Origin: Dehalococcoidia bacterium
Lineage (GTDB): Bacteria > Chloroflexota > Dehalococcoidia > Bin125
Direction: 5' to 3'
DNA length: 64,000 nucleotides
Assembly: GCA_963663895.2 (NCBI GenBank)
Contig: CAXXRD010000005.1
Coordinates: 160,408-224,407 of the forward strand
The position numbers and the translations under genes are program-made. Below, piece by piece: positions 30,271-64,000 of the stretch. The notes beneath the pieces were generated by a model, which did not search any database, was not told where the DNA came from, and saw only the letters and a list, made by a program, of their open reading frames with translations. The stretch's first letter is position 1, and each line of letters begins with the position of its first letter.

Positions 30271-30921
30271 GTGAACGGCAGGCCGCTGGTCACGGCGCCG
30301 CCGGTGGCGCGCCTGATCGAAGCGTTCCACCGGCTGCCTGGCATTGGGCCGAAGAGCGCCCAGCGGTTGGCGTATCACGTCCTGCGCGCTCCGCGGGCGG
30401 AGGCGGAAGCTCTGGCGGCTGCGCTGGTCGATGTGAAGGATCGGGTCCGCCTTTGCAGTCGCTGCCAGAACGTAACGGAGCAGGACCCCTGCGATCTCTG
30501 CTCCGACGGGGCGCGGGACCAGGGACTGATCTGTGTGGTCGAGGAGCCGCTGGACACTCTGGCGGTGGAGCGAGCGGGAGTCTACGCGGGCCTCTACCAC
30601 GTGTTGCACGGCGCTCTTAGTCCGATGGACGGAGTGGGCCCCGAGAAGATCAAGATCCGGGAGCTCGTCGAGCGGGTGAGCCGTGGGGGCGTGCGGGAAG
30701 TGATCTTGGCGACAAACGCCACGATGGAGGGCGACGCGACGGCAAGCTATCTCGTGCGCTTGCTCCAGCCGTCCGGGGTGGCGGTTACGCGTATCGCGCG
30801 CGGACTGCCCGTCGGCGCAGACGTGGAGTATGCGGACGAGATCACGCTGGGCCGAGCGCTGCGGCAGCGGGTGCCGGTTGAGACGGAGGAGGGGACCGCC
30901 GTCGAAGGCGGGGAGCGGTAG
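30271..30921 (+). CDS. recR: Recombination protein RecR
   Basis: Motifs LPGIGPKSAQRLAYH, CSRCQNVTEQDPCDLC and a Toprim region. Confidence 0.92.
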   Translation: MNGRPLVTAPPVARLIEAFHRLPGIGPKSAQRLAYHVLRAPRAEAEALAAALVDVKDRVRLCSRCQNVTEQDPCDLCSDGARDQGLICVVEEPLDTLAVERAGVYAGLYHVLHGALSPMDGVGPEKIKIRELVERVSRGGVREVILATNATMEGDATASYLVRLLQPSGVAVTRIARGLPVGADVEYADEITLGRALRQRVPVETEEGTAVEGGER

Positions 30922-45694: not shown

Positions 45695-45770
45695 GCCCCC
45701 GTAGCTCAGCCGGATAGAGCGTCGGCCTCCGGAGCCGGAAGCGCAGGTTCGAGTCCTGCCGGGGGTACCA
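45695..45770 (+). tRNA. tRNA-Arg (anticodon CCG), CCA encoded
   Basis: Hand-folded cloverleaf:
- acceptor GCCCCCG/CGGGGGT
- D arm GCTC-AGCCGGATA-GAGC
- anticodon arm TCGGC-CTCCGGA-GCCGG (U33, CCG, G37)
- T arm GCAGG-TTCGAGT-CCTGC
- A73-CCA. Confidence 0.9.
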
Positions 45771-45804
45771 GACGAGACTGTACACGTTGCCGCAGCCCCC
45801 TGGC

Positions 45805-47409
45805 CTAGCACTTCCGAAGGACGATGACCTCGTTCTCGGTGATCGCGTTCTTTACATGCGCAAAGTTCTGTGTTGTCACAGTAATGGGAATCGACTTCTC
45901 CCAAGAAAAGCCAACCTGTTCCGCTATCCGAACGATGTGGGAGCAGGTCGTAATTTGGAACTGTCGCCCGTCACCAAGAACGGTCTTACTGTCACCCAGA
46001 ACCAGGCGGGCTTCCGCCCCAACTCTCATGGCTGCAGAAACATTTTCTAGAGAACGACGCATTCCTGTAAAGTACCGGTATAATAACGCCGCAGTGTTCC
46101 GTTTCCTGAACCCAACCTCAAATTTCTCATTAGTCTCCATAATTTCACGAATATCTCCTCCCACCTCCGAAGGTAGCCTCGCCAAGCCTCCTTCAAGCAT
46201 CTCCTGCTCAATGCTCCTACGCCACCTTTCTGGAATCTCTCTACTTCCAATAATCTCCTTTTCCAACCTAGATCTGTCTTTGTGCGACATCAATCCAAGT
46301 ACGGTAAATGACAAGCGTTCCGTGTCCACATAGGGAAGAGCGGTCGCGTAGGGTGGACTGCTGACGACAGCATCTACCGGATGCTGGGCCAAGACAGGAT
46401 GCAGCCCTGGCGCTAGGGTCCTTGTATCCTCCTCCTGGACATCAACGTTGGGCTCTTTCCACGGGTAATGTCTCGTGAGGTCCTGCCCCGCTCTGATTTT
46501 TTTCATCTCACTTATCGCCTTGTTCACTGTCATAGTGAACAGAGGAGCGTCCCGGATAGGTTCCGGCCTTCGTCGCATCCGCAGATCCCGTGGGTCTTGC
46601 TGAGAGCACGACCGTAGCTGGTCGGACAAGCAGACCTTCAAAAAGTCCTGAATGCCGGGCTCTGCGATGCTGTCTATCGCCTGCAGCGTAATCGCAAGCT
46701 TGTGGCGGACGGACCCGGGAAACCAGCCTCGCAGTTCTGCTTCCGCCCCCGGCACACCACACAGCGCAGCGAGCCGGCTCGCTTCGTAGTCGGAACGCCC
46801 TGGTGGCTCCTTTTCTCCAAGGCCGCCCCATGCAATGCCCTCTGCCTTCGCCAAGCGGATCAGGTCGTCCTCAAATCTCTCGATAGCCACAGCAATTGAG
46901 TGAGCGGGGGTTCGAAGCATTCGCACCTTCGTCCTGGCAATGAGAACGGCAAGCGGGTTGACATCGAAACCAAGGGCGTCGACTCCAAGCAGCCAGGCCT
47001 CGACTAGCGAAGTCCCACTACCAGCGAACGGGTCGACCACGAGATCGCCCGGCGACACCTTCGCATGATTGAGAAGGGCCCGGGCAAGCTGCGGGTAGAA
47101 CTTTCCCTTAAACCGGTGGAGACCATGTGTGAGGTAGTTCGACTCTTTCCGGCCACTGTGACGACCTTGCAGTGCCAGTGTGGCCTGCTCAAGGAGAGAG
47201 ACGTCAGTGGTGACTTCAACGCCGTGTCCGGAAACCCTCGACGAAAAGGCAATGCGACGCAGCACTTCGGGTGAGATTCTCAGTGGCGTAGCAACCGTAC
47301 TCCCGGAAAGAGGCGTGCCGTTAGCGAGAGCAACAAGTTCGTGCTGGGCAAGCGTCTCCTCGTAGGGAAACGGCTGGTAGCCAGGCTTCGCGATCTTGTA
47401 CTCAAACAC
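45805..47409 (-). CDS. DNA methyltransferase (N4-C/N6-A SPPY type), M2 of the island
   Basis: Motif I DPFAGSGTSLVEA, then ~230 aa later motif IV VVSSPPYATALPY. Paralogous architecture to 47413-48801. Confidence 0.8.
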   Translation of the reverse strand: MFEYKIAKPGYQPFPYEETLAQHELVALANGTPLSGSTVATPLRISPEVLRRIAFSSRVSGHGVEVTTDVSLLEQATLALQGRHSGRKESNYLTHGLHRFKGKFYPQLARALLNHAKVSPGDLVVDPFAGSGTSLVEAWLLGVDALGFDVNPLAVLIARTKVRMLRTPAHSIAVAIERFEDDLIRLAKAEGIAWGGLGEKEPPGRSDYEASRLAALCGVPGAEAELRGWFPGSVRHKLAITLQAIDSIAEPGIQDFLKVCLSDQLRSCSQQDPRDLRMRRRPEPIRDAPLFTMTVNKAISEMKKIRAGQDLTRHYPWKEPNVDVQEEDTRTLAPGLHPVLAQHPVDAVVSSPPYATALPYVDTERLSFTVLGLMSHKDRSRLEKEIIGSREIPERWRRSIEQEMLEGGLARLPSEVGGDIREIMETNEKFEVGFRKRNTAALLYRYFTGMRRSLENVSAAMRVGAEARLVLGDSKTVLGDGRQFQITTCSHIVRIAEQVGFSWEKSIPITVTTQNFAHVKNAITENEVIVLRKC

Positions 47410-47412
47410 CAG

Positions 47413-48801
47413 CTATTCCTTTACCAACAGCAAGATGTGCTCCTTGCGGGCCCGGCGTGCGGCGTGGATCATTGAACGTTTCCTTGGGTGAATTACCCGG
47501 CCGACGCATGCGATGGTGCGGAGACCAAGCCGCCGGGAGACTCCAGAGAGCACTACAGCGTTGTTCACGAGCCTGCCACCAAACACGGAGTCCCCAACTA
47601 CGAAGGCAATCGGCCGTCTAGGCTGCAGGCAGGTCATGACTGAGGCGAGACACTCCCTGAGGTCGTCCTGGTAGATGCTGATGGCGTTCGCCTGACCTTG
47701 GTGGTTTAGGTGAGAGCCAATCTCCGCCTCGCGAACCTGCTTTGGGTCGAATCCGAGCCAATAGAGGCGGTGGCGGTGGTACAAGTGGTAGTCGAAAGCG
47801 TTGGCATAGGGTGGGGAGGTGATGACTGCGTCCACGAGCCCGATTTCACTGGCGTCAAGTTGACGAGCATCCCCGACAAGGGCTGTGGCCGCCGAGGATG
47901 AAGCGCCCCTTAGCCACCCGCGGTGCATCCGCACGGTATGCATCAGCTTTTCCCGAAAGCGGCGGAGGACATCGCCAACTTCGACGGTCTTCGCCCTCGC
48001 CGTGTAGCGCGTCTCGGAGTCCTGATTGGAAGCTTGGACGAGGATGGCTGAGAAGCATGCCCGCGCCACTGTAGCTGCGGACGGATGAGCCAGCTCGTCA
48101 ACCCTCGCTAGGATCATGCCCAGCTCATGCATCGCCTGGGGCGTGAACCAACGTTCTCGATTCGGGATCTGTGGAGGGGTAACTGGTGCGATGTCCGGTG
48201 TGACTGTTGCCATGAGGATTGGCTGGCCGGTGATGCGGGAGATATCCGCCTCAACAGCCTTGTCGAGCCCATCCAGGGCACTAAAGCCGGGACTATCCAG
48301 AACAAGGGTCTTGGCTAGCGATGCAAGAACCGCGACAGGGTTTGAATCGATCCCGATGCTGCTTCGGCCGAGAGCCCTTGCTTCGACCAAGGTAGTGCCC
48401 GATCCGCAGAAGGGGTCAAGGACCGTATCTCCTGGACTCGTGAGGACGTTGATCAGCCGGCGCGGGATTTGGGGGGGAAACTTGGCCGGATAGGGGTGGA
48501 GATTGTGGGTCCATTCGTCGGTCCGCTCGTCCTCGAACGCCCAGTCGGAATCATCGAGGATGCGCTTCCACTCGCGCTCAGAGTCATCCCTGGGTTCGTC
48601 AAGGGGAACTTCATCGTGATGCTCTTCAGCAGACTGCTGCGCGAGCCACGCCTCCAGAGCGGCGGGCTCATACCGAACATTCGAGCCTACCCTGACGAAA
48701 GGAATGTCCCCTCGAGTTCGGAGTCGCCAGAGCGTCGTCCGAGACACCCCCAGAATATCTTCGACCTCAGCCTCTGTGAGGAGATGATCTGGGTGAAACA
48801 T
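47413..48801 (-). CDS. DNA methyltransferase (SPPY type) with an N-terminal excisionase/MerR-type HTH, M1 of the island
   Basis: HTH LTEAEVEDILGVSRTTLWRLRTRGDIPFVRVG. Motif I DPFCGSGTTLVEA. Motif IV VITSPPYANAFDY. Confidence 0.8.
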   Translation of the reverse strand: MFHPDHLLTEAEVEDILGVSRTTLWRLRTRGDIPFVRVGSNVRYEPAALEAWLAQQSAEEHHDEVPLDEPRDDSEREWKRILDDSDWAFEDERTDEWTHNLHPYPAKFPPQIPRRLINVLTSPGDTVLDPFCGSGTTLVEARALGRSSIGIDSNPVAVLASLAKTLVLDSPGFSALDGLDKAVEADISRITGQPILMATVTPDIAPVTPPQIPNRERWFTPQAMHELGMILARVDELAHPSAATVARACFSAILVQASNQDSETRYTARAKTVEVGDVLRRFREKLMHTVRMHRGWLRGASSSAATALVGDARQLDASEIGLVDAVITSPPYANAFDYHLYHRHRLYWLGFDPKQVREAEIGSHLNHQGQANAISIYQDDLRECLASVMTCLQPRRPIAFVVGDSVFGGRLVNNAVVLSGVSRRLGLRTIACVGRVIHPRKRSMIHAARRARKEHILLLVKE

Positions 48802-48849
48802 GGGGAAACGATAGTCGCAGTGTGAGGAACCGTCAAGACGAGTCCGTGT

Positions 48850-50142
48850 TCAGACCCACCCCATCCTGCGCGCCCGTGGCTTACCACCGGATGGCAGTGT
48901 CTGGTCGCACCGCGTAATCCACTTCCGGTAGCCAGGGGAACCTTCCGGGTGGACCTCCATCTCGTAGTTCGTCCCCTGCTCCAAGCCTTCGTCGGCATGG
49001 CGAATGAGGAGGAGAGAGTACGGAGGAATGTACTGACGCAGCTCCTGACCAACAGTCATCCGTACGTCGGCGTTGTGGTATTTCATGATCTCAGGCCGAA
49101 TCGTGGTCTTCTCAGCAACCTTGCCTGTGCTGTCGAAGGCAACGAATCGTACAGTCGGGTGAGGATCCATCTTAGGGTAGGGTTTGTTGCCGGCGACTTT
49201 TGGAGTCGTTTGTCCAGACCAAGGCCACCCAAAGAATCCGGGGTTTTGGTCAATGGCCCTGGCGCTGAGAAAAACCTCAGAGTTGGGTCTTGGTACAACC
49301 TCGATCAGCAACACTGAGGCGATGGCACTGAATCCGCTCGCGGCACTCTCATGTGTCCTCAAAAACCCTTTGTTTGTGTGTGCGGGTATCGCAGACGGTG
49401 GCGCAATCCCAGAGGTCCTGAATGGAAGCTGGGCCTCCCGCTCCTCGGTGCCTCCGTGCTCGCCACGCTCAACCCGTGACCGCGCTTGAATCGCCCGTTC
49501 TGGCTCAACGAGCCCTGCGCTGACCAGCTCGTCTATCAGTTCCGTATCCAGTGCAGCCGCGCTCGGCGAAGCGGAAGGCAGCATCGCAGACCACGCGACG
49601 TCGAATTGGGACCACTGCTCAGACTCCGCGGGAAGGGAAAACTCAAAGGCAACCCCCGCTTCGTAGTTAAGCTCCAGTCCACCGAGAGTCAGGTTGTGGG
49701 AGCCGACAAGTGCTTGCGCTTCGGTAGCACCGTCGAACAAGTACAGTTTCGGATGGAAAGTCACGCTCGGATTCGGTTCGTAAAGGACACTCACCGCATC
49801 GAAGCGATCAAGCAGCAGGCGGAGTGCTTCCTCGCTGGTCCCACGATGGTCGATTCCAATAATGGCTTCCGCGCGACCACCCCGGGCACGGAACTCGTCA
49901 ACGGCCTGGATGATTCGGACGACACCAGCCTTGCGAGCAAAGGCAACTGCGACCCGAGCTCGTGTGAACCTCTCGTCGTGGAGGTAACCAGCTACGAACT
50001 CTCGTGCCCGAACCTTGCCGGCCGGCGCCTCATGAGGGGCAAGAAGCTTGAAGTTCACGGCCGTCTGGCATCCAGTGGGGCTGCGATTCTCACGTGCGGC
50101 GCATTTTGACACACTCAGACGGTGGTAGTCCGGTCCCTGCAT
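48850..50142 (-). CDS. PLD/HKD-family nuclease with a probable B3-like DNA-binding C-terminal domain (BfiI/NgoFVII-like restriction endonuclease)
   Basis: Single HKD motif FHPKLYLFDG...LVGSHNLTLGGL in the N-terminal half, followed by a ~170-aa beta-rich C-terminal domain. Sits in an operon with two MTases. Confidence 0.7.
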   Translation of the reverse strand: MQGPDYHRLSVSKCAARENRSPTGCQTAVNFKLLAPHEAPAGKVRAREFVAGYLHDERFTRARVAVAFARKAGVVRIIQAVDEFRARGGRAEAIIGIDHRGTSEEALRLLLDRFDAVSVLYEPNPSVTFHPKLYLFDGATEAQALVGSHNLTLGGLELNYEAGVAFEFSLPAESEQWSQFDVAWSAMLPSASPSAAALDTELIDELVSAGLVEPERAIQARSRVERGEHGGTEEREAQLPFRTSGIAPPSAIPAHTNKGFLRTHESAASGFSAIASVLLIEVVPRPNSEVFLSARAIDQNPGFFGWPWSGQTTPKVAGNKPYPKMDPHPTVRFVAFDSTGKVAEKTTIRPEIMKYHNADVRMTVGQELRQYIPPYSLLLIRHADEGLEQGTNYEMEVHPEGSPGYRKWITRCDQTLPSGGKPRARRMGWV

Positions 50143-50372
50143 GGGTTGCAGCCCCTATGTGGGGCTCGTGTCAGGTCCCCTTCCTACGGAGACCCGAAGT
50201 ACGCTCAGAACGAGAGCTTTACGTAGAATCGGGCGCATCTCTTTTCGCACGAGCGCGTCGTCATGCCGATGTCTCTGCTGTGCTAGGGGGATGACACAGC
50301 CTGTTTCGGGCGGACCGGCTGAACACCAGGATCTAGGTGCCTGGCTACAGAGCCATGGCCAACTCGAACGTG

Positions 50373-50383
50373 CGTAGTACAGT
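50373..50383 (+). repeat. CGTAGTACAGT motif, copy 1
   Basis: Exact 11-mer. With flanks, CGAACGTGCGTAGTACAGT (50365-50383) matches copy 3 at 18/19. Confidence 0.6.
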
Positions 50384-50399
50384 CCCGTCGGGTGTACCA
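50381..50399 (+). repeat. Degenerate direct repeat of the tRNA-Arg 3-prime end (candidate attR)
   Basis: AGTCCCGTCGGGTGTACCA versus tRNA 45752-45770 AGTCCTGCCGGGGGTACCA: 16 of 19 identical, same orientation. Confidence 0.5.
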
Positions 50400-50461
50400 A
50401 TGTGGACTGTGGGAGTAATTGGCTCTGGTGGCCGAAGCGGATTGTGGTCGCCTGGACGACG

Positions 50462-51031
50462 CTAGATCTGCCCGTAGCGGGAGCAGCTTGTGAGGTGGTC
50501 GTTCACGAGGCCGGCGGACTGCATGAAGGCGTAGCAGATCGTCGGGCCGACGAAGGAGAAGCCGTAGCGGCGCAGCGTCTTGCTCATGGTGCGTGACTCG
50601 TCTGTCTGCGCTGGCAGGTCGGCGAGGCTGAGGAAGGCGTTGCGGCGGGACTCGCCCTTGACGAAACTCCAGAGGAAAGCGTCGAGGGAGCCCTGCTCGG
50701 CCTGCACGGCGAGCGTCGCGCGGGCGTTGGCGATGGCGGCGGCGATCTTGGCGCGGTTGCGGATGATGCGGGCGTCGCCGCGGAGCCGTTCGCAGTCGGC
50801 ATCGTCGTAAGCAACGACGGTCGCGATGTCGAAGCCGTCGAAGGCGGCGCGGTAGCCCTCGCGCCTGTGGAGAACGGTGCGCCAGGAGAGCCCCGCCTGC
50901 GCCCCTTCGAGGACGAGGAGCTCGAAGAGAGCGCGGTCGTCGCGGATGGGGACGCCCCACTCTTCATCGTGGTAGCGCTGCATGAGGGGGTCGTCGCCGG
51001 CCCACGCGCAGCGGGTGAAGAGATCGGTCAC
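50462..51031 (-). CDS. tag: DNA-3-methyladenine glycosylase I
   Basis: RCAWAGDDPLMQRYHDEEWGVP...LVLEGAQAGLSW. Confidence 0.9.
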   Translation of the reverse strand: MTDLFTRCAWAGDDPLMQRYHDEEWGVPIRDDRALFELLVLEGAQAGLSWRTVLHRREGYRAAFDGFDIATVVAYDDADCERLRGDARIIRNRAKIAAAIANARATLAVQAEQGSLDAFLWSFVKGESRRNAFLSLADLPAQTDESRTMSKTLRRYGFSFVGPTICYAFMQSAGLVNDHLTSCSRYGQI

Positions 51032-51190
51032 GGCGGGAGAGGGTAGCAGGGCGTACGAGGGCGACGCTTACGATCCGCACACACCCGGCAGGGCCAGGAG
51101 GCCAACCTGTCAGAAGACGCTACGCCGACTAGCCAGCAGCCAACGACGGTGGTAGGACAGGAGGCCATGGCAGCCAGCGGGAGAGGGCCC

Positions 51191-52549
51191 ATGCCACGGC
51201 GCATTGCCATTGTTGGTGGCGGCATTTCAGGGCTGGGCGCCGCCTGGGCGCTGTATCACCACCCGGACCGTTTTGATTTTCGGCTGTTCGAGGCGCGGGA
51301 ACAGGTTGGCGGCAATGCGATTACCGCTGATATGCCGCAGGATGACGGCAGCTCGATTCCCTTCGACATCTCTGTCACCGCTTGTATCCCGTCGGTCTAT
51401 CACCACGTTCTGCTGCTGATGGAAAAGTTCGGCATCGAGCTGATCGATACCCGGTTCAGCTACAGCGTGAAGTACGGCGGGCAGGTCTACGCCCACGATT
51501 TCGATTCCGAGATCAGGGAGCAGCTGCAAGCGGAGATCGCGAGGTTCCAGCGAGTCTTGAGATGGTTGCATTGGTTTGGTTGGCTGAGCCGCTCCCAATC
51601 GAAGTTGCTGAACGCCCTCAATCCGTTCAATTACCTCAGCATGGGGACGATCCTGAATCTGGGAGGATTTTCTGGAGACTTCCGCTACAAGATTCTGAAG
51701 CCTATGTTCGTCAATTTCCTGATGGCGACGAACGTATTCGATATGCCTGCGGCGCTCTTCGCGAGGTATCTCGAATTCTTCGATATCGAAACCGCGACGC
51801 CCATGCGGACCTGGGACCAGGGAACGCGACGCATCTACGAAAACTTAGCGGCCAACTTTCGGGACAAGATCTACCTCAACCGGCCCGTCCGAAAGGTGTA
51901 CCGGCGGGCGTCCCGCGTCGTAGTCGAGGACGAGGACGGCGTACGGGAGACGTTCGACCAAGTGGTGTTCGCCTGCAATGCGAACCAGACGCTGATGATC
52001 CTCGACAACCCCACGCTTCTTGAGCGCTATATCCTCTCGTCGATCCGCTATGAGAGTGAACTTCACAACCACGCGGTCGTCCACTCCGACGCCTCAGTCC
52101 TGCCGGACAACGAGGTGAAGCCCCTGACAACGCGGAGCACGCATGTCGAGCAGTACGGCGCGAGACCGGACAACTATGAGATCACATACATCATGCACAA
52201 CCAGCAACCATGGGCGAATCGGTCCGATAAGCCTTGTCTGGTGACCTACAACCCGATCAGCTCCATTGATGAACGAAAGATCGTCAAGAGGTGGTGGTTT
52301 CAGCACATCGTCCATGACGTGCGCCACGTGGTATTGCTCGTCAACTTGTTCCGCTTCATTCAGGGCAAGAGGCGCACGTGGCACTGTGGCGCTCACACGC
52401 TGATCAACAGCCAGGAAACCTGCCTCGTTACCGGGCTCGCCACTGCCAGACAGATCGGCGCCGACTACCCCTTCGACGATCCTGCGGCGAAGCGGTCGTT
52501 CAACTATTACGGGAGCATCATGTACGGCTCGCGATTCCGGAAGGCGTAG
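51191..52549 (+). CDS. NAD/FAD-binding oxidoreductase (COG2907, amine-oxidase/CrtI-like fold)
   Basis: Dinucleotide fold RIAIVGGGISGLGAAWAL...FEAREQVGGN. C-terminal WHCGAHT...ETCLVTG. ATG 51191 is preferred (the ORF is open from 51149). Confidence 0.75.
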   Translation: MPRRIAIVGGGISGLGAAWALYHHPDRFDFRLFEAREQVGGNAITADMPQDDGSSIPFDISVTACIPSVYHHVLLLMEKFGIELIDTRFSYSVKYGGQVYAHDFDSEIREQLQAEIARFQRVLRWLHWFGWLSRSQSKLLNALNPFNYLSMGTILNLGGFSGDFRYKILKPMFVNFLMATNVFDMPAALFARYLEFFDIETATPMRTWDQGTRRIYENLAANFRDKIYLNRPVRKVYRRASRVVVEDEDGVRETFDQVVFACNANQTLMILDNPTLLERYILSSIRYESELHNHAVVHSDASVLPDNEVKPLTTRSTHVEQYGARPDNYEITYIMHNQQPWANRSDKPCLVTYNPISSIDERKIVKRWWFQHIVHDVRHVVLLVNLFRFIQGKRRTWHCGAHTLINSQETCLVTGLATARQIGADYPFDDPAAKRSFNYYGSIMYGSRFRKA

Positions 52550-52627
52550 CGCTGGATGCCATGGAACCTCCGCGGCCGGAGATCATCCGAGCGGGGAGCG
52601 CGTCCGTCCTGGAGTCGTAACATGAGG

Positions 52628-53683
52628 CTATGTCGTCGATGTGGAGTCCCCGTAATCGCTCAGATCGGGATAGAACTGGGCGCAATAAGCTCGAAAGGTC
52701 CGCATCTCCCCATCGGAGCGGCAGAGGCGCGGATGGGAGAGGTACTGTTTGCGGCCCCAGATCACCACGTCCTGCAGCACGTCATGCTTCTGCTGCAGCG
52801 ACATGAACTTGTTCATGAGGGGCGCGCGCAGCCTCCGCGGCAGAAATCCCAGACCGACAATCCGCCGCCTCGGGTTGCGTATCTCCCGCACCTGCGAGAC
52901 CAGCGACAGGTCGATGAGCGTGCCGTCGACCGGCGTCGCCAATACCCACAGACGCAGATCCATGTCGATCGAACGCTCGTGGATCTCCACGAACGAGTAG
53001 CCCAGCCCATAGATGCGGGCTTTGGCGGAGATGTCGAAGTTGAGGGTCATGATTCCGGCGATCCGCCGGGATGACCGGAAGTCGAAGCCGGTCTTGAGCA
53101 AGGGACCGTCCACCGCTACCGGATCGACGCCGCCCACATTGTCGTATCCGTGGACGTAGCGAAGGTGAGCCAGATCCACGGAGTTCTCCGTGGTCTCCTG
53201 GGGATGGCCGGGGAAGCGCAGGGTTTGGATCTTGAAGTCACTCCAGCCGGCCTGGTCCGGGTCCGCAGGCAGGTGCCATTGCGGCGCTCGGCCCTCGATC
53301 CCCCACCAGGCGAAGATCAGGCCGTGGATCACTCGTGTCTCGAAGACTCGCAACCTCGCGGACCTGGGTGGGGCGGCGAAGGGAGTGGCGACGCATTGAC
53401 CGGTAGTATCGAACTCAAAGCCGTGGAAGGGGCAGACGAGCCGGCCATCGCAAATGCGCCCCCCCGCGGCGGGTCCCAGATCGGAGCCCAGGTGCGGGCA
53501 GACGGCCTCGGCGACGCAGACGCGCCCGTTCTCTTCACTCCAGACGACAACGTTCTCGTCCATCCAGGTCTTTTGGATGAGCTTCGCCTTCAGGATGTCC
53601 CGGCGGCTTGCGACGAAATACCATCCCTCGGGAAACAGGGAAGGGAATGGGGCGATCGCGGGTTCCCCACGCTGGGTTGGCAT
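52628..53683 (-). CDS. Rieske [2Fe-2S] non-heme-iron oxygenase (KshA/Neverland/SdmA-like class)
   Basis: Rieske CPHLGSDL...CPFHGFEF. Mononuclear iron motif ENSVDLAHLRYVH. GAGGAG RBS before ATG 53683. Confidence 0.85.
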   Translation of the reverse strand: MPTQRGEPAIAPFPSLFPEGWYFVASRRDILKAKLIQKTWMDENVVVWSEENGRVCVAEAVCPHLGSDLGPAAGGRICDGRLVCPFHGFEFDTTGQCVATPFAAPPRSARLRVFETRVIHGLIFAWWGIEGRAPQWHLPADPDQAGWSDFKIQTLRFPGHPQETTENSVDLAHLRYVHGYDNVGGVDPVAVDGPLLKTGFDFRSSRRIAGIMTLNFDISAKARIYGLGYSFVEIHERSIDMDLRLWVLATPVDGTLIDLSLVSQVREIRNPRRRIVGLGFLPRRLRAPLMNKFMSLQQKHDVLQDVVIWGRKQYLSHPRLCRSDGEMRTFRAYCAQFYPDLSDYGDSTSTT

Positions 53684-53858
53684 CCTTCGATACTCCTCAC
53701 TCGGAATCTCGGGTTGCCGGCCTCCATTGCCAAGATACCCGTCTAGGATACGAGAACCGCTTGCCCATCACACCCGGTCCACCCACTTGCCTGTGCGTCC
53801 CGCGTCCCCTGCGGGACGGTCATCCGTCTTTTTCCCTGCCCGGTAAGTAAGGTAGACT

Positions 53859-53907
53859 GTCCATTATGGGGAAAGTCTAAGCCGCTTAGGCTTTCCCCAT
53901 AATGGAC
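53859..53907. promoter_or_regulatory. Perfect 49-nt palindrome/hairpin covering the first ATG of the GPP34-P450 gene
   Basis: GTCCATTATGGGGAAAG (53859-53875) pairs perfectly with CTTTCCCCATAATGGAC (53891-53907). The inner CTAAG/CTTAG stem has a 3-nt CCG loop. This gives 22 Watson-Crick pairs plus one T-G. Confidence 0.85.
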
Positions 53908-55947
53908 GGGGCAAAACTCATGGCTATCGCGACGAAAGCTGGGGTCACCCAGTCGCTCAGTTTGCCCGACGAGCTCGTCCTGATGCTCCTCAACGAAGAG
54001 AGCGGCTACTTTCGCCAAATACCCGGCTGGAATTTGAACTGCGCCGTCGTCGGCGCCGTACTCGCGGAACTGTCGCTGGACTCTCGCATTGACACGGATA
54101 TGGAGTCCCTGATCCTTCTGGACCAGACGGAGACGGGCGACCCGGCCCTGGACCCCATCCTGAAGGAGATTGCAAGCGAACCAGTGCAACGGAACGCCCA
54201 GTATTGGGTTGAGCGGCTCGCTCCCCATGCGGAGTCGATCATTGATTTGACCATGGATCGCTTGGTTGACCTGAAGATCCTGCAACGCCACGAAGGCGAT
54301 TTTTGGTCGCTGGCCAGTACTGCTTGGCAGACGGATCTACTCAGCAACTCCCATGAAGGCACCGCGGCTGAGTTCGTCAGAACGCGCATCAACAGAGTGA
54401 TCTTCAGCAACGAGATTCCGAGCCCGAGAGATATCATCCTTGTTTGCCTCATCGATACGTGCGATCTCTTTCGCTTCATGTTCCAACTCGAGGACGAGTC
54501 GGAGGAACGGATCCAGCTCATCTGCAAGATGGATTTGATCGGCCGGTCCATCGCCGAGGCGGTCTCCGTCAACATCGCCAGTCCGGCGCTTCGGCGCCCC
54601 GCCTTGACTAAGTCAATTCCGACTGTCCCGCTGCGGCGGCTCCTGCTCAATCCCCATGCTCGCGGCGGCAATATTCCCGCACTCTTTGCGGATCTCGCCG
54701 AGAAGCACGGCCCGGTGTTCGAGATCCGCCCGCCGTTTAAGAAACCCATGATCTTTCTGGCCGGGCCCGAGACAAATCACTGGGCACATCGGCACGGGCG
54801 GATGTACCTGAGAGCCAGGGACTATCTCCATGACTTCGAGAAGATCTATGGCGCGTCTGGACTACTGCCGGCGCTGGACGGCGCCGATCATTTTCGCTTG
54901 CGCAAGTCCCTGCAGCAGGGTTACTCGCGCGCGAGATTGGAAGGGCAGGTGGATCAGCTCTACCGTCTTGCCCGGACGCACATGGCGGATTGGACGGTTG
55001 GAGACATTGTCCCCATGGTCACCCTGTGCCGGCGTTTGATGAACGCGCAAATCTCGCCGCTCTTAACCAGCGTGGATTCGCAGGATCTCTTCGACGATCT
55101 AGTCAAATTCAAGGACCGGGCACTCAAAACGACGCTCTTGGGGGTCATGCCCAAGTTCATGCTGCATACCCCGAGCATGAAACGCCGGGCGAAGCAGATC
55201 GACGTACTGATGGAGCGGGTCCAGAGTAGCCATACGCCCGCCCAGCGGACTGGCCGTCCTCGTGATCTTGCGGATGAGTTTCTCAGCCTGCACGCGAGCG
55301 ATCCACAGTTCCTACCGGAGTCGAATCTGCGCTTCAAATTTACGGCGCCGGTGATCGCCAGCATGTACAGCGGCGATACGCTGAGCTTCGTGGTCCACGC
55401 CATGGTGTCGCAGCCTGCGTTCTACGAGAGAATCCGGAGTGAAGCCGATGCCTTGTTTGACGGCGGCGATCCGGACGGCAAGGATTTCACCCCATCCGCG
55501 ATCGATGTCACTCGCCGTTTCATCATGGAGTGCCTGCGCCTGTATCCGATCATCCCGATGTCGATTCGAAACGTGATGAATACGTGCGTGGTTGAGGACT
55601 ACGAACTGCCGGAGGGGGCGCAGGTTTACGTAGCCCAAACCGCCACGCATTACATGAGCGACGCTTTCCCGGAGCCCCTCTCTTTCGATATCGATCGCTA
55701 CCTGCCTCCGCGCGGTGAACATATTGGTCCCAACTACGCCCCGTTCGGACTGGGCACGCACACATGTCTCGGCGGCCGGTGGGTGGAACTGCAAGTGGCG
55801 ATCAACCTGCTGATGCTCGCGCATTACTTCACGTTCGAGCTGTCGCCCCCGAACTCCAAGCTCCGGGTCAACATGTTTCCGTCGATGTCTATCAAGAAGA
55901 AGGTGAAGTGCGTCATCGCTGAGCAGAGACGCGAGTTGAACGTCTAA
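53902..55947 (+). CDS. GPP34 (GOLPH3-like) domain fused to cytochrome P450
   Basis: - N-terminal ~200 aa: GPP34 pattern (LSLPDELVLMLLNEESGYF, CAVVGAVLAELSLDSRI, TGDPALDPIL).
- C-terminal ~450 aa: P450 (ExxR ECLRLYP, FDIDRYLPPR, heme loop FGLGTHTCLGGRWVELQ).
- Start is ATG 53902 or 53920. Confidence 0.8.
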   Translation: MDGAKLMAIATKAGVTQSLSLPDELVLMLLNEESGYFRQIPGWNLNCAVVGAVLAELSLDSRIDTDMESLILLDQTETGDPALDPILKEIASEPVQRNAQYWVERLAPHAESIIDLTMDRLVDLKILQRHEGDFWSLASTAWQTDLLSNSHEGTAAEFVRTRINRVIFSNEIPSPRDIILVCLIDTCDLFRFMFQLEDESEERIQLICKMDLIGRSIAEAVSVNIASPALRRPALTKSIPTVPLRRLLLNPHARGGNIPALFADLAEKHGPVFEIRPPFKKPMIFLAGPETNHWAHRHGRMYLRARDYLHDFEKIYGASGLLPALDGADHFRLRKSLQQGYSRARLEGQVDQLYRLARTHMADWTVGDIVPMVTLCRRLMNAQISPLLTSVDSQDLFDDLVKFKDRALKTTLLGVMPKFMLHTPSMKRRAKQIDVLMERVQSSHTPAQRTGRPRDLADEFLSLHASDPQFLPESNLRFKFTAPVIASMYSGDTLSFVVHAMVSQPAFYERIRSEADALFDGGDPDGKDFTPSAIDVTRRFIMECLRLYPIIPMSIRNVMNTCVVEDYELPEGAQVYVAQTATHYMSDAFPEPLSFDIDRYLPPRGEHIGPNYAPFGLGTHTCLGGRWVELQVAINLLMLAHYFTFELSPPNSKLRVNMFPSMSIKKKVKCVIAEQRRELNV

Positions 55948-57032
55948 CGCACCAATGGATCACAACCCAGAGATTGGGAAGGAGATGGCCTGAGGGGTTT
56001 GCGTGCCAGGAAACAGTACAATGGCGTGAAGATTCCGGCCCTGCCGCCGGCGACATAGGCATTTGCGGTCCGATCCATCAACCTGACAACGTCCGCAGAA
56101 CCCTTGGGGAACGCCCCAAGGACCTCAGCCAGCCTGGATGCCCCGATGAGCGCTTTACGGCCCAGCGGAGTTCTCCGCAAGCGCGTTGCCCGTGTTCTGT
56201 GTGTGGTTTCCATGGGTTGATACCACGGCGTGGTCAGACCGTTTCTCCTCGGCGAGACGGCACGGTCCAATCCCTCAATGACCTCGAATCCCGCCGTTAC
56301 GAGCGCCCGATTCACTCCATCCATCGTCGCGATATCCTTGAGCGCGATGCCGTGCATCAGGTCCTGCTTGATGGCCCGATGCCGATTATCGTCGGGATGA
56401 AACTTGTCCGTCATGCACATTTCCTGACCCCAGAAGAGGGCTCCGGGCTTCAGCACCCGGTAGATCTCGGCGAACGCGCTTACCTTGTCAGGCGCATGGC
56501 ACGTCGATTCGATCGCATAACCCCGGTCGAACGTGTCGTCCGCAATGGCGCCCATGTCCATGAAGCTGCACTCAAGGTAGTCGACCATGTGGTCAAGTCC
56601 CGCCTCAGCGTTCAAGGATTTCGCCTTGTCAAGCTGGAGTTTATTGTTGTTGACCCCGACGACCCTAACACCGGCCTCACGGACGACCCGGCGCATCGGG
56701 CCGCCGATCCCGCAACCGACATCGACCACCGTCATGCCTGGCGTAACCTCCAGCTTGGCGATCATCAGTCGCTGATGCCGGATCTTGGACTCCTCCAAGC
56801 TCTCCCCTGGCGATAGTGGCGCGAAGTGCAGGGATTCGCCCCAACCAAAAACCATGAACTCGCCGCAAAGGTCGTAGTATTCCTTGACGGTTTCGGTGTG
56901 GTCGTAGCCCAGTGCGCCAGCCTCCTCTGTGGACATTCTGTCGGTCCATCCATCAAAGCGTTGCACGCGACGGGCGACACTCGACCCTTGATACGCGACC
57001 TTCAAGCCTTTTCCTAGCTTGCGGAGTTGCAT
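55944..57032 (-). CDS. Sterol 24-C-methyltransferase (ERG6/SMT) family SAM-dependent methyltransferase
   Basis: All SMT hallmark blocks are present: YYDLCGEFMVFGWGESLHFAP, VVDVGCGIGGP, VGVNNN, YAIESTCHAPD and YRVLKPG...MCMTDKF. ATG 57032 is preceded by AAAGGGGA (an in-frame TTG lies at 57047). Confidence 0.8.
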   Translation of the reverse strand: MQLRKLGKGLKVAYQGSSVARRVQRFDGWTDRMSTEEAGALGYDHTETVKEYYDLCGEFMVFGWGESLHFAPLSPGESLEESKIRHQRLMIAKLEVTPGMTVVDVGCGIGGPMRRVVREAGVRVVGVNNNKLQLDKAKSLNAEAGLDHMVDYLECSFMDMGAIADDTFDRGYAIESTCHAPDKVSAFAEIYRVLKPGALFWGQEMCMTDKFHPDDNRHRAIKQDLMHGIALKDIATMDGVNRALVTAGFEVIEGLDRAVSPRRNGLTTPWYQPMETTHRTRATRLRRTPLGRKALIGASRLAEVLGAFPKGSADVVRLMDRTANAYVAGGRAGIFTPLYCFLARKPLRPSPSQSLGCDPLVR

Positions 57033-57165
57033 GAGATCCCCTTTCAAAACAGCTAAGGCGAGCGGATTGTTCGCCGGAGACCCGACTGAGCGGCATCCGT
57101 GCCGTGGCCGAGGCCGGCTAGACCATTGAGGTCGTCGGCCGGTAGCGGTGTTCCCCTACGATCGC

Positions 57166-59676
57166 CTACGACGAGGCCTGTTCCTGCTCGTGGCGTTGAT
57201 GGACTTGCTCGATCACCACGTCAAGCTCCTCCGCCATACGCTCCGCCATCGAGCGGAGCCGCGCGTTCTGGTACGCGCCCCAGACCGTCATCGCGGGCGG
57301 GACGACCAGGATGGCGACGATCAGCGAATAGGCGATCGTGATCGCCGCCGTGATGCCGAACTGCTGGAACGCCAGCAGCGGCGAGGCCACCAGTACTCCT
57401 AACCCGAGCGCCGTCGTGAGCCCGGAGCCCAACAGCGCCGAGCCCGTGGTCGAAAGCGTCCGGATCGCCGCCTTCTCCGGGTTGCGCAGGCGCGCGAACT
57501 CCTCCCGGTAGCGATGAATCACATGGATCGTGTAGTCCACCCCGATCCCGATCGAGAGCGCCGTAATGATCGAGGTGACGAGGGTGTAGGGAATACCCAG
57601 CAGCGCCATCGTGCCCAGCACCCAGATGAGGACGAATACGATCGGGCCCACCGCGATGATGGCCAGCACGGGTTGGCGCAGCGTCAGCCAGAAGAAGATG
57701 GCGAGGATGCCGAGGGCCAGCGCAATGGTCGCGCTGATCGACTCTGTCTGTCGGCTCGTGATCTCGTCCGTGACCGTAACCGCGGTGATACTCGACGAAG
57801 TCGCCGTGATCGCATGGTCGTCGCCCAACCAGAGCGCGTCGATCTCCTCCTGGATCCGCTCCGTTTCCTCGGGATCGTCCGTATAGGCCGGGAACTGGAG
57901 CAGCATTGCGTCAATGCCCTCTGGGTCGTTGATCAAAACATGCGCGACGGCGGGATCCCTCGCCTCCAGCTTGTCGAGGAGCTCCTGCATCAGCGCTGAA
58001 TCGAGCTCTACTCCCACCGAGGCTTCCCGGAAGAGCGCGGCGAGCTCCGGGTCGTATTTGTCGCCGGGCTCCCCGCTGTCGTTGGTCCAGTCACGTACGA
58101 GCAACTCGTACGATGCCAGAATCGGTCCCGCTGCCGCCCGGGGGCGGCGCCGTTCGTCCTCAAAGGCGGTCGTGAGATCCTGCAGGTTCAGAAGCGTGCG
58201 GGTCTCGGTGGCCTCGGCCTTCACGAGGACGCTGGCCATCTCCGTTGAGCCGCCGACGGCTGCGTCGAGGGTCTCCATGTCTTCCACCACGCTCCCGTCA
58301 CTGGGCAGGATGTCGCGGATGCTGAATTCCGATTTGAGCCCCGTGGCCGCGAACCCGAGCCCGATCGTCGCCGCGACCACGACGACGAAGTAAGGTGCTG
58401 GCCTGCGTGCGGCCCCCGCTCCCAGCAACTCCGCCCCCCGTTTGATTCCGGGCAGGGCGTTCGCGATCGGGCGGGGCGGTTTCAGCGTGCCCCGTGACTC
58501 GCGCCGCCGGTCGATGATCGTCCGCGCGGCCGGGAGCAGCGTCAGCATCACGATCAGGCTCATCCCCACACCCAGCCCCGCGACGATGCCGAAGTCGCCG
58601 ATCACGCCGATAGGGGAGAACAGATTCGCCAACAGACTCACGATCGTCGTGACAGCGGCGAGCGTGAGCGGGGCGGCGACGTTTCGCAGTCCCCTCCGGA
58701 CCGCTCCCCGCACCGGCTCGCCGGCAGCGCGCTGCTCGCGGTAGTGCGAGACGGCCTGAATCGCATAGTCCACGGTGAGGCTGATCATGATGATCGGCAC
58801 TACCACTGTGAGCGAACTGGGCGGGCCGATCAGACCCAGCGCATCCGGCCCAAGCCAGCCCTCCGCCCCGATGATCCAGATCACCGCAATCAGTAGCCCC
58901 CCCAGGGTGAGCAGCAGATCGGAGAGCGATCGCATGAAGACCAAGATCAGCGCTGCGATCAGCAGCAGCGCCACCCCAATCAGCTGCTGCATCCCCTGCT
59001 CCGTGGCCTCCTTGTACTCATCTTCAACCACCACGGGCGACACGCTGCTCACGCGCAGCAGACCCTCGTCCCCGGCCGCCAGATCGCTGATCTTCCGTTC
59101 GGCGTCCTGAATTCTCTCGTCGTCCGTGTCACGCAGGCGGATGGTGGCGATGGCGACCGGCGTGCCGTCCGTGTCGGTTCCCGTCATCCCGGCGAGCGCC
59201 CCATCGATCTCCGGGGCGCTGCGGGCGGAGTCGATCTCGGCCTGCGTGACCGACTCGAAGCCGTCCACTCGGAGAAGGTCCTTGATCAGCGACGTCGGTG
59301 TGGCAATGGGATCGGCAGGCGCCAGTAGCTCCCTTACGCTTGGGTCGCTAACGATCGCATCGACCAGGGTGTCCATCTGAGAGAGTCCGGCGGGCGTGAG
59401 CGCCTCCCCGCGGAAGACGAGCGTGACAACACGGACCTCGCCGGAGTCCCCAAAGCGCGCATCGATCTCCTCAATCGCCTCGGCGACGGCGTTCCCTGGG
59501 GGAAGGAACGCCAAGGATGCGCCCTCCACCAGTGGTGCGCGCCGCATCGTGCCCGCAGCCAGCAGAACGGTAATGATGAGGAGAACAAGGATCGTGATGT
59601 ACGGGCGGGCCGTGACCAGCCGGCTCAACCTGTCGAGTACCTGATTCATGGCGCGCATTCTAACCGAGGAGGGCAC
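57166..59676 (-). CDS. MMPL/RND-superfamily lipid transporter (HpnN-like, two 6-TM bundles)
   Basis: 836 aa with duplicated TM bundles and large periplasmic loops. The typical MMPL N-terminus LDRLSRLVTARPYITILVLLIITVLL is present. Start uncertain (59676, 59658 or 59649). Confidence 0.8.
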   Translation of the reverse strand: MPSSVRMRAMNQVLDRLSRLVTARPYITILVLLIITVLLAAGTMRRAPLVEGASLAFLPPGNAVAEAIEEIDARFGDSGEVRVVTLVFRGEALTPAGLSQMDTLVDAIVSDPSVRELLAPADPIATPTSLIKDLLRVDGFESVTQAEIDSARSAPEIDGALAGMTGTDTDGTPVAIATIRLRDTDDERIQDAERKISDLAAGDEGLLRVSSVSPVVVEDEYKEATEQGMQQLIGVALLLIAALILVFMRSLSDLLLTLGGLLIAVIWIIGAEGWLGPDALGLIGPPSSLTVVVPIIMISLTVDYAIQAVSHYREQRAAGEPVRGAVRRGLRNVAAPLTLAAVTTIVSLLANLFSPIGVIGDFGIVAGLGVGMSLIVMLTLLPAARTIIDRRRESRGTLKPPRPIANALPGIKRGAELLGAGAARRPAPYFVVVVAATIGLGFAATGLKSEFSIRDILPSDGSVVEDMETLDAAVGGSTEMASVLVKAEATETRTLLNLQDLTTAFEDERRRPRAAAGPILASYELLVRDWTNDSGEPGDKYDPELAALFREASVGVELDSALMQELLDKLEARDPAVAHVLINDPEGIDAMLLQFPAYTDDPEETERIQEEIDALWLGDDHAITATSSSITAVTVTDEITSRQTESISATIALALGILAIFFWLTLRQPVLAIIAVGPIVFVLIWVLGTMALLGIPYTLVTSIITALSIGIGVDYTIHVIHRYREEFARLRNPEKAAIRTLSTTGSALLGSGLTTALGLGVLVASPLLAFQQFGITAAITIAYSLIVAILVVPPAMTVWGAYQNARLRSMAERMAEELDVVIEQVHQRHEQEQASS

Positions 59677-62400: not shown

Positions 62401-64000
62401 TCACTCACCAGCCGGTTGTGCGACCGCCACTTCGATTGCGCTGCTGCGGAGCCAGACTCCGACCGGCAATTCCGCCGGCAGGAACAGGAGATCGGGCGTG
62501 ATGGCGCGGCCGGTCGTGTCGCGGAAGCCCAACTCGATGCGGCCGTCGGCGAGGCGCCGGGTGCGGACCTTGCCGAGCGTCTCCTCGGAGAACACGATGT
62601 CGCTGGTCACGTGCCACAGAGCGATCGGGGCATCGGCCAGCAGGAGGCGCGCGCGCGGCAGGATCTGCTGGCCGTTGGCCAACTCCACCCCGTGCTCGAC
62701 ACTCCCATCCTCGGTCAGCCGCGCGATGATGCGCAGCTGATGGGGTTCGGCCGGCGGGTCCAGCACTACCTCCGGCGGTTGATCCGGCGCGTGTAGCGAA
62801 CCGACCTCCGGGTCGGAGGAGATCCCAAGACGGTCCAGGAAGCGCGAGTTCTCGCCGTCCCCGGAGGAAGCCGCGCAGAGCGCTGCGTCGCTCCCGAACC
62901 CGAAGAGGGGCAAGGCGGCGCGAAGCTCCGCGTCTTGCGCGTGCGGGTAGGGTTCGGCGCCGCAAGAGGCCTGTGCGGCCAGCTCATTGATCATCGCCCG
63001 GACGGCCGGGTCCTGCCAGCCCGCTTCCGCCTCCCGCGCGGCCCGGACGGTGTCGCCCGCGGCCGCCAGCGGCGCGAGGATGCGCTCCGCGTAGGCCAGC
63101 TCGCTGTGGAGCGCGACCGCCTCCGCGAACGAGATCGCCCCGCCGCCTGCGATCCGCTCCGCAAGCGCGCTCCAGGAGGCCGACAGCGCTGCGTAATGCC
63201 GGGCTCCCCTGTCGGCCATCCGCAGCACGAGCTCCTCCACCGCGAGCGGATTGATCGCCTCGCTCGCAGCCAGCGTCTCCTCAAGGCCGGATCGCTCGAT
63301 GGCGTCTGCGTACTGCTCCGCGAACGCTTGGAACAGCGTGTCCGATGATGCGTTCGCGATGCTGATTGCCAGTGGCTCTTCGCTCGCCGTCAGGCCCGCG
63401 AGCCCGGGCCGCTCGAAGATCCCGTCCAAGAGGAGCGCATGCACGGCCGCGGCGTAGATCGCCTTGGCCCGCACTGTCTCAGCGACCTCCCCCTCGGGCT
63501 CCATGATGGCGGTGACCGTGGTGGTCACGAGCCCTTCGGCGTCGGCCGTGGCCGCGACCGCGTATTCCGAGCCGTCGATCGTGACCGTGACCGGGCCGAA
63601 GGTGGTGGGGCCGCTCACCACCCGCAGGTTCTGCCAAAGGCCGTGCCAGGCGATCTCCTCGTCGTCTGCGTCGAAAGCGAGGACGGCGACGAACACCCAT
63701 GAGGGGCCTGGCCGGGAGAGAGTCATCGTGATCGGCTGCACCTCGGCCAGCGTCGTGCTGGTGGCATTGGCCAGCTCTGGGCTGGAGTGGTAGGCCACTC
63801 CGGCTTGCCAGCGGTCCTCGGACACTGAAATCGTGTTGAGCCGTTCGAACTCGCGCGGGGCGACCGCGTAGAGGATGACGCTCGTCCCCTCGGGGAGTGC
63901 CCCGCCGCCCAGGTTGCCGATCCGATAGTTGGCGGCGAAGGGCTCGCCTGCAATCACCTCGTCGGGGACAGCCGTTTCCTCGATCTTGAGGAGGAAGGTA
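62401..64000 (-). CDS. Large hypothetical protein, 5-prime end probably outside the window
   Basis: Frame is open from 62401 to the window edge; the listed GTG 63957 is only the first possible start. No motif recognised. Confidence 0.5.
   Translation of the reverse strand, partial: TFLLKIEETAVPDEVIAGEPFAANYRIGNLGGGALPEGTSVILYAVAPREFERLNTISVSEDRWQAGVAYHSSPELANATSTTLAEVQPITMTLSRPGPSWVFVAVLAFDADDEEIAWHGLWQNLRVVSGPTTFGPVTVTIDGSEYAVAATADAEGLVTTTVTAIMEPEGEVAETVRAKAIYAAAVHALLLDGIFERPGLAGLTASEEPLAISIANASSDTLFQAFAEQYADAIERSGLEETLAASEAINPLAVEELVLRMADRGARHYAALSASWSALAERIAGGGAISFAEAVALHSELAYAERILAPLAAAGDTVRAAREAEAGWQDPAVRAMINELAAQASCGAEPYPHAQDAELRAALPLFGFGSDAALCAASSGDGENSRFLDRLGISSDPEVGSLHAPDQPPEVVLDPPAEPHQLRIIARLTEDGSVEHGVELANGQQILPRARLLLADAPIALWHVTSDIVFSEETLGKVRTRRLADGRIELGFRDTTGRAITPDLLFLPAELPVGVWLRSSAIEVAVAQPAGE

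Follow-up and report, generated by a model that had tools for sequence, protein, structure and literature searches.

The sterol system of Methylococcus capsulatus consists of SdmA/SdmB, CYP51, and BstA. Sterol methyltransferases (SMTs) and gene clusters for de novo sterol synthesis have been found in bacterial sponge symbionts (Brown et al. 2023, PMC10070321), and sterol gene clusters with horizontal transfer have been described in symbiont Dehalococcoidia, Binatia, Nitrospiria, and other classes (Kelly et al. 2022, PMC9531527). The GPP34_L proteins, in which a GPP34 domain is joined to a cytochrome P450, number 656, form one clade, and are exclusive to sponge symbionts; they were proposed to bind phosphatidylinositol 4-phosphate (PI4P) and to evade phagocytosis (PMC11706023, Microbiome 2025). 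In the present study, we analyzed a 64,000-nucleotide stretch of contig CAXXRD010000005.1 from a Dehalococcoidia bacterium (hereafter, the window), in which a GPP34-P450 fusion is encoded together with an SMT homolog, a Rieske oxygenase, a flavin adenine dinucleotide (FAD)-dependent oxidoreductase, and a transporter of the resistance-nodulation-division (RND) type. We found that these five genes are one conserved mobile unit, which occurs almost exclusively in sponge-inhabiting bacteria. Judged from its sequences and gene context, the module is rather probably a horizontally mobile accessory unit for the tailoring and export of sterols, specific to sponge symbionts.

The steranes 24-isopropylcholestane and 26-methylstigmastane are used as the oldest chemical evidence for animals. 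The early-animal argument hinges on the producer of the sterane precursors, and the module bears on these fossil "sponge" sterols as a defined gene set for asking whether symbionts make or remodel sponge-type sterols. In the open-access literature, we did not find the five-gene unit, its near-constant pairing with an RND exporter, or its junction with a cyclase cluster, an absence that is not proof; nor did we find there that the most widespread symbiont SMT-like gene had been recognized as a subfamily of its own, in which the sterol pocket is rebuilt. Searches of the main texts of PMC10070321 (with its supplements) and PMC9531527 gave no mention of the GPP34-P450 protein, the KshA-type Rieske protein, or a transporter partner.

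Methods

Relatives of the window SMT were collected with one genome per species, which gave 512 loci; the best 80 of these are 74-88% identical. Loci are cited by number (L001 and so on). Linkage was counted in 81 SMT-anchored loci, each from a different genome, with neighbors taken up to 10 kb from the SMT gene. L150 was found through a P450-anchored search and lies outside the SMT-anchored set.

The comparison sequence that we take to be yeast ERG6 gave no match in an exact-sequence look-up. We relied on it because its numbering fits the published residue positions and the identities calculated with it are close to those in the literature. For GOLPH3, the PI4P-contact residues were taken to be W81, R90, R171, and R174; the first 102 residues of the sequence used were confirmed.

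A conserved five-gene module

Open reading frame (ORF) and Pfam results agreed with the five genes, domain classes, and coordinates that a preliminary description of the window had claimed. The module consists of the following features.

51191-52549, + strand: FAD-dependent oxidoreductase with an amine-oxidase/phytoene-desaturase fold, LkcE-like (Amino_oxidase and NAD_binding_8)
52628-53683, - strand: Rieske non-heme-iron oxygenase of the KshA type (Rieske and KshA_C)
53684-53901: divergent intergenic region between the Rieske and GPP34-P450 genes, 218 bp from the gene coordinates
53902-55947, + strand: GPP34-P450 fusion, a single ORF of 681 amino acid residues with GPP34 at residues 21-221 and P450 at residues 254-660
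about 53962-54564 and about 54661-55881, + strand: GPP34 domain and P450 domain of the fusion, respectively
55944-57032, - strand: SMT homolog assigned to a divergent subfamily, a class I methyltransferase (Methyltransf_11) with Sterol_MT_C
57166-59676, - strand: MMPL/HAE3-type RND transporter with MMPL and Sterol-sensing/Patched-type matches

Near the SMT gene, the GPP34-P450 gene was found in 57 of the 81 loci, the MMPL gene in 54, the Rieske gene in 52, and the FAD gene in 37. When all ORFs of these loci were clustered against each other, just these five families were widely shared, and the flanks beyond the module differed between loci. As only five families recur amid otherwise unrelated flanks, their grouping is not due to chance. 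The order of the core is invariant: the GPP34-P450 gene converges on the SMT gene in 57 loci, and the MMPL gene, where present (54 loci), always lies upstream of the SMT gene in the same direction. The window has this codirectional arrangement, as had been noted (both genes on the - strand). The positions of the Rieske and FAD genes shuffle around the core. An independent metagenome scan showed the GPP34-P450 gene in 18 of 27 long loci. Synteny across relatives, proposed as a check on the preliminary description, was thus borne out in about 80 genomes.

The next commonest families, in 16-17 loci or about one-fifth of the genomes, are a 270-residue protein with no Pfam match (L034:3817-4629) and a DHA2/EmrB-type efflux transporter of the major facilitator superfamily (MFS; L034:4672-6144). 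This pair is usually located between the FAD and Rieske genes.

The carriers are sponge-symbiont genomes from at least eight phyla, and their module proteins are 62-89% identical. The SMT-anchored genomes belong mostly to Dehalococcoidia/Chloroflexota, and also to Acidimicrobiia, Thermodesulfobacteriota, Alphaproteobacteria, and Binatia; several carriers are known as chromosome-level assemblies. A search anchored on the fusion or the flavoprotein added Nitrospira, Deltaproteobacteria, Rhodospirillaceae, Opitutae, and Gemmatimonadota genomes at 67-89% identity. Since the protein identity is so high across phyla, the module has evidently been transferred horizontally.

A metagenome search gave 62 matches among 241 million records, from only ten sample prefixes, and all prefixes with an identifiable source were sponge samples: LXNJ from Petrosia ficiformis, LXNI from Sarcotragus foetidus, and JGIcombinedJ30088 and Ga0209021 from Aplysina aerophoba. 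We take prefix MKWU to be an A. aerophoba sample as well. The genome-name prefixes COS, RHO, and APA fit sponges of a published survey, although we infer the matching of prefix to species. The closest named relative of the window is 'Chloroflexota bacterium COS3_bin_3'. The host had been called non-canonical; this view did not hold, as the nearest relatives are sponge-symbiont Chloroflexota/Dehalococcoidia, a group with published sterol clusters and SMT enrichment (PMC9531527).

Junction with clusters for de novo sterol synthesis

The module is contiguous with a complete de novo sterol cluster on the Binatia chromosome OZ242288.1 (L081), on A. aerophoba contigs (L098/L099), and in Nitrospira sp. 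SB0662_bin_26 (L150). The Nitrospira-type junction contigs derive from two sponge species. The genes of L081 are, in order, a KshA-type Rieske gene, GPP34-P450, FAD, SdmB-like, SdmA-like, a canonical SMT, a window-type SMT (77% identical), a second GPP34-P450, two unknown genes, a squalene-epoxidase/oxidosqualene-cyclase fusion (1269 residues, with the motif VTDCTAE), a CYP51-like P450, and ERG24. The clusters of L098/L099 and L150 gave 720 bits with the oxidosqualene-cyclase model, 410 bits with the SdmA model (the score of the L098 protein; NF052579, cut-off 600), and 301 bits with the SdmB model. Together with the synteny in about 80 genomes, this contiguity supports the earlier proposal of a functional unit connected with sterol chemistry.

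Squalene epoxidase and oxidosqualene cyclase form one ORF of about 1150-1270 residues at L081:15427-19236, L098:4360-8022, and L150:13995-17465.

A canonical second SMT, with Region I of the form YEY/YEF...SFHF and about 40% identical to the window SMT, stands beside the module in L013 (17223-18251), L027 (14423-15439), L032 (14438-15511), L075 (18080-19177), and L081 (8751-9782). Residue 249 is Gly in four of these five proteins and Asn in the L081 copy; G249 was reported to be necessary for propylation and for the formation of 24-isopropyl sterols (10.64898/2025.12.19.695621). Between the canonical and the window-type SMT of L098, a C-terminal remnant of a KshA_C-type Rieske gene (L098:9143-10000) is a trace of module decay.

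These junctions allowed us to compare the module oxygenases with genuine sterol demethylases of the same clusters, to which the preliminary description had likened them. The window Rieske protein scored 34.4 bits with the SdmA model. Its identity is 21-22% to the SdmA-like proteins in L081 and L098 and 66% to the KshA_C-type Rieske protein of L081. The module P450 lacks the 'GQHT' I-helix signature of CYP51, and its P450 domain is 25-28% identical to the co-resident CYP51-like P450s. Because of these low identities, the module Rieske protein and P450 should be regarded as additional enzymes beside the canonical demethylases and not as stand-ins for them. The analogy with Methylococcus is therefore overturned, and the sterol reading is strengthened.

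The sterol methyltransferase homolog, the flavoprotein, and the pump

The window SMT gave 57.8 bits with Sterol_MT_C (PF08498; Pfam cut-off 21.7) and is 36% identical to yeast ERG6 over 347 residues (2e-72). A sequence search of the PDB with this protein returned only generic methyltransferases and no true SMT. Region II, DxGxGxxGP, is present as VDVGCGIGGP, and D125, G127, G129, G132, and P133 are kept in 75-76 of 76 clade members; G333, G352, F357, and P359 are also conserved in the clade. Region I differs. It reads EFMVFGWGESLHF in the window SMT against the usual DFYEYGWGxSFHF, so that the motif Y81-E-Y-G-W-G-x-x-F89-H-F is replaced by M-V-F-G-W-G-E-S-L-H-F. The changes Y81M, E82V, Y83F, F89L, and IA at 249-250 are clade-wide (F89L in 71 and Y81M in 70 of the 76 members), and only a few close relatives share the Region I changes among 107 family representatives. 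Twenty-five residues are reported to be conserved in all SMTs active on desmosterol or 24-methylenecholesterol (10.64898/2025.12.19.695621). The window SMT keeps 22 of them and differs by T78 to G, F89 to L, and L341 to M. The protein is under strong purifying selection, and we assign it to a divergent paralog subfamily with an altered sterol-binding motif. About 500 related loci exist in species-representative genomes, and we found no reported activity on standard substrates.

The two SMTs of L098 are 34.9% and 42.0% identical to ERG6, and the published A. aerophoba cluster SMTs are 35.16% and 42.36% identical to it (PMC10070321). Synteny and the agreement of these values suggest that the protein published as 'A. 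aerophoba ...10000835 2 of 2' is the window-type SMT. A later preprint chose further SMTs by a Gly or a gap at position 249 (10.64898/2025.12.19.695621), and the window-type clade was therefore excluded.

Solitary SMT copies (L003, L005, and L082-L084) sit among unrelated genes, some of them beside restriction-modification or toxin-antitoxin genes. L003 and L005 are two window-type SMT genes 110 kb apart on the Dehalococcoidia contig CBDEGP010000002.1.

The flavoprotein matched Amino_oxidase (1.5e-17) and NAD_binding_8. Among solved structures, those closest to it are LkcE (2.7e-30, full length) and the fatty-acid double-bond isomerase of P. acnes (2b9w). No other protein of the module is as well conserved; its counterparts in Gemmatimonadota, Acidimicrobiia, and Chloroflexi genomes are 84-89% identical. 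BfaA/BfaB were considered as a precedent for the flavoprotein and rejected, since BfaA is described as a MurB-like FAD-linked oxidoreductase, which has another fold.

The pump matched MMPL (1e-48, 166 bits), Sterol-sensing (5e-14), and Patched (4e-12). All curated models scored below their cut-offs: 204 bits for TIGR00921 HAE3 (cut-off 352), 118.5 for HpnN (752), and 45 for BstA (1400). The suggested equivalence with BstA is thus not supported. An RND-type pump is nevertheless a constant partner of the module in each phylum sampled. In Gemmatimonadetes, Opitutae, and a 6.6-Mb contig (L152), a tripartite AcrB/adaptor/outer-membrane-factor (OEP) pump replaces the MMPL protein, and because such a pump takes its place, the role of the MMPL pump would be export.

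The properties of these three proteins bear on the possible, if unlikely, case that the module acts on a non-sterol olefin, such as a sponge or bacterial terpenoid, a hopanoid, a carotenoid, or an unusual fatty acid, and that the substrate of the SMT changed with Region I. Such a substrate would fit the clade-wide rebuilding of Region I, a probable inactivity of the SMT ortholog on the two standard sterols (see below), and the lack of a nearby cyclase in most module loci; the flavoprotein's solved relatives, moreover, use a polyketide amide (LkcE) and linoleic acid (2b9w). It would leave unexplained why, in Binatia and Nitrospira-type genomes, the module sits within clusters for de novo sterol synthesis, why the SMT retains Sterol_MT_C and most residues of the functional enzymes, why the Rieske protein carries the steroid-oxygenase domain KshA_C, and why the transporter has Sterol-sensing/Patched-type matches. 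We thus prefer a sterol as the substrate of the module.

The GPP34-P450 fusion

Both domains were found by Pfam in one ORF (GPP34, 1.4e-30; P450, 4.6e-35), and the protein has both the heme motif FGLGTHTCLG and the motif ECLR. We obtained 2168 homologs at E<=1e-20. Among the 120 listed, the identity is 67-93% and every protein has GPP34 and P450; the few that carry a source name are from genomes named Nitrospira, Deltaproteobacteria, Rhodospirillaceae, and Opitutae. The nearest solved relatives of the P450 are an uncharacterized P450 and C-terminal parts of CYP51 (about 1e-19). The AlphaFold model is poor, with a mean predicted local distance difference test (pLDDT) score of 64 and substrate-recognition regions below 50. 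A stand-alone short GPP34 gene lies at L151:12901-13524, two genes downstream of the module's GPP34-P450 gene.

The fusion had been thought undescribed; it was in fact published in 2025 as GPP34_L (PMC11706023). If the protein acted in sponge cells as a eukaryote-like effector, binding PI4P and stopping the maturation of phagosomes, its neighbors in the module would be incidental. We consider this very unlikely, as the SMT, Rieske, FAD, and RND genes are conserved and not incidental neighbors, and neither a signal peptide nor a transmembrane segment is visible in the sequence of the N-terminus. The GPP34 domain is a true one by Pfam, the GPP34 and P450 combination is exclusive to sponge symbionts and forms one clade (PMC11706023), and the Trp matching GOLPH3 W81 varies little or not at all in clade alignments, all of which suits an effector; the other three of the four contact residues, however, appear non-basic here (R90 to V, R171 to E, and R174 to I, in an hhalign profile alignment of 85.6% probability and low diversity). 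The main text of PMC11706023 does not mention sterols, methyltransferases, or MMPL, nor a link to SMT, Rieske, FAD, or RND genes. A role in sterol tailoring would give this published hallmark of sponge symbiosis an alternative, metabolic explanation drawn from its gene context.

The Rieske protein

The Rieske protein matched Rieske (1.9e-18) and KshA_C (2.9e-23), and its translation has the cluster motif CPH...CPFH (CxH...CxxH) and the mononuclear motif NSVDLAHLRYVH (NxxDxxHxxxxH). Its best solved relative is KshA (7e-24), in a match that covers only about the first 170 residues. Steroid catabolism genes are reportedly common in sponge metagenomes, and with KshA as the nearest solved relative and no cyclase in the window, the module might serve the uptake and catabolism of host sterols, its Rieske protein, P450, and flavoprotein opening the steroid as in actinobacterial cholesterol degradation; this is highly improbable, as a methyltransferase has no catabolic role, the flanks share no further catabolic family (what recurs is the five families, the efflux MFS transporter, and one unknown protein), the partner pumps are exporters (tripartite AcrB/OEP and DHA2 efflux MFS), and the clusters that the module joins are biosynthetic and not degradative.

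Proposed function

We propose that the module tailors and exports sterols as follows. The sterol would come from the bacterium's own oxidosqualene-cyclase cluster or from the sponge host. The divergent SMT would alkylate the side chain with S-adenosylmethionine (SAM), its substrate probably being neither desmosterol nor 24-methylenecholesterol, and the phytoene-desaturase-like flavoprotein would desaturate, isomerize, or reduce the side chain beside the new branch. The KshA-type Rieske protein and the P450 may introduce oxygen or double bonds into the nucleus or the side chain, with the N-terminal GPP34 domain holding the P450 at the membrane or binding lipid. The RND pump (MMPL in Chloroflexota; AcrB-type in Gemmatimonadetes, Opitutae, and L152) would then remove the product from the cytoplasmic membrane.

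Several observations weigh against this proposal. The window holds no cyclase, as the preliminary description had stated and as we confirmed by Pfam on 30 ORFs distributed over the window and by scanning all six frames for cyclase motifs. In the set of about 108 long SMT-anchored loci, a cyclase lies within 10 kb in just two lineages (L081 and L098/L099). No gene of the module encodes a ferredoxin or reductase that could serve the P450 or the Rieske protein. The genes do not always occur together: the GPP34-P450 and Rieske genes, with or without the FAD gene, and the pump occur without the SMT in an Opitutae genome and on the 6.6-Mb contig (L087 and L152), and window-type SMT genes occur alone in L082-L084. 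The window SMT departs at T78, F89 (in GWGxxFHF), and L341, which are reported as conserved in all SMTs active on desmosterol or 24-methylenecholesterol. As every active SMT retains F89, the SMT '2 of 2' was presumably among the enzymes inactive on desmosterol and 24-methylenecholesterol.

A more specific role, which we regard as distinctly unlikely, is that the module is behind the unconventional sterols of demosponges, with extra side-chain alkylation (26-methyl, C30-C31) and unusual oxidation. The divergent SMT would then alkylate already C-24-methylated sterols of the host or the bacterium, the flavoprotein would regenerate the double bond that a further alkylation requires, and the pump would pass the products to the sponge. 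If this were true, the 'sponge' sterane biomarkers would be partly bacterial, and the GPP34-P450 protein would be a sterol enzyme and not a phagocytosis effector.

Local sequence features and chromosomal surroundings

The stop codons of the GPP34-P450 and SMT genes overlap tail to tail, as had been observed: TAA at 55945-55947 on the + strand and TAG (read as CTA) at 55944-55946 on the - strand. The overlap is due to a 15-residue C-terminal extension, RPSPSQSLGCDPLVR, encoded at 55944-55988, which is specific to the window SMT and absent from its relatives; these align only to residues 1-347, and the overlap is not kept in them.

The GC content is 57.5% in the FAD gene, 58.7% in the GPP34-P450 gene, and 59.2% in the SMT gene, against 64-69% in core genes; the Rieske (63.4%) and MMPL (65.8%) genes are host-like. 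The low GC content described for the cluster thus holds for three genes, but the gap is smaller than the 55% versus 73% read from 60-base lines. The divergent intergenic region at 53684-53901 presumably holds promoters for both directions. An Rfam scan of the window gave tRNA only, with no match in this region, and scans for consensus promoters and terminators gave nothing over chance level, including in these 218 bp.

The remaining window is ordinary chromosome, with genes for complex I, tRNA synthetases, RelA, EngA, and a polyprenyl synthase. A 4.6-kb restriction-modification insertion of low GC content (56-60%) occupies 45774-50395.

45695-45770: tRNA-Arg(CCG), exactly behind which the island is inserted
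45805-47409, 47413-48801, and 48850-50142, all on the - strand: island genes for two N6/N4 DNA methyltransferases and a PLD/NgoFVII-like nuclease

On the L001 contig, the flanks are 97-98% identical in DNA to those of the window, and the module lies at the same site, between a methyladenine glycosylase gene and GT2/cyclophilin genes, without the segment 45774-50395. The tRNA-linked island was therefore ruled out as the vehicle of the module. Of the horizontal acquisition suggested near this island, the transfer itself stands, from the cross-phylum identity, but the island is a separate insertion. Between window 50396-57075 and L001:9960-16628, the module is 94.4% identical, against the 97-98% of the flanks. 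Toward the 3' ends of the P450 and SMT genes the identity declines gradually, reaching 88-91%, which suggests a recombination tract in the module.

In L001, the Rieske gene is disrupted, and a fragment of an IS1595-type transposase gene separates the MMPL gene from the SMT gene. In the window, a gene for a type IV restriction enzyme-like protein with GmrSD_N and RAMA (13265-15511, + strand, 59.5% GC) lies in a low-GC dip at about 13-16 kb and looks like a second small defense insertion within the core chromosome. The ORFs at 28879-30609 and 62401-63957 (both - strand; 576 and 518 residues) had no Pfam match at E<=1e-5.

Comparison with known systems

The module and the sterol system of Methylococcus share the enzyme classes Rieske oxygenase, P450, and RND transporter, but none of the module proteins is an ortholog; genuine SdmA/SdmB/CYP51 homologs stand beside the module in L081 and L098. 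The window Rieske protein has the same N-terminal Rieske and KshA_C domains as KshA, the 3-ketosteroid 9-alpha-hydroxylase, whereas neither the reductase KshB nor other catabolic genes were found near the module. With HpnN and HAE3, its best curated matches, the pump shares the MMPL architecture, yet it scores below both family cut-offs.

In furan fatty acid synthesis, the SAM methylase UfaM and the phytoene-desaturase-like FAD desaturase UfaD act on a lipid alkene (PMC7380195). The module may follow the same logic, in which a SAM-dependent C-methylase acts on an alkene and an FAD enzyme then acts beside the new methyl branch. The lipid class is different.

The sterol clusters of sponge symbionts (PMC10070321 and PMC9531527) are in the same niche, show the same evidence of horizontal transfer, and contain an SMT, and the module adjoins such clusters in L081, L098/L099, and L150. 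The window module differs from them in that it lacks the cyclase, squalene epoxidase, CYP51, ERG24, and SdmAB, contains a P450 and a Rieske protein of other families, and has a near-constant exporter. Finally, the window fusion protein fits the definition of GPP34_L, with the same two-domain architecture and the same restriction to sponge symbionts of many phyla. Phagocytosis evasion was proposed for GPP34_L, whereas the conserved neighbors of the gene, and the cyclase clusters that the module adjoins in some genomes, indicate a link with sterol metabolism.

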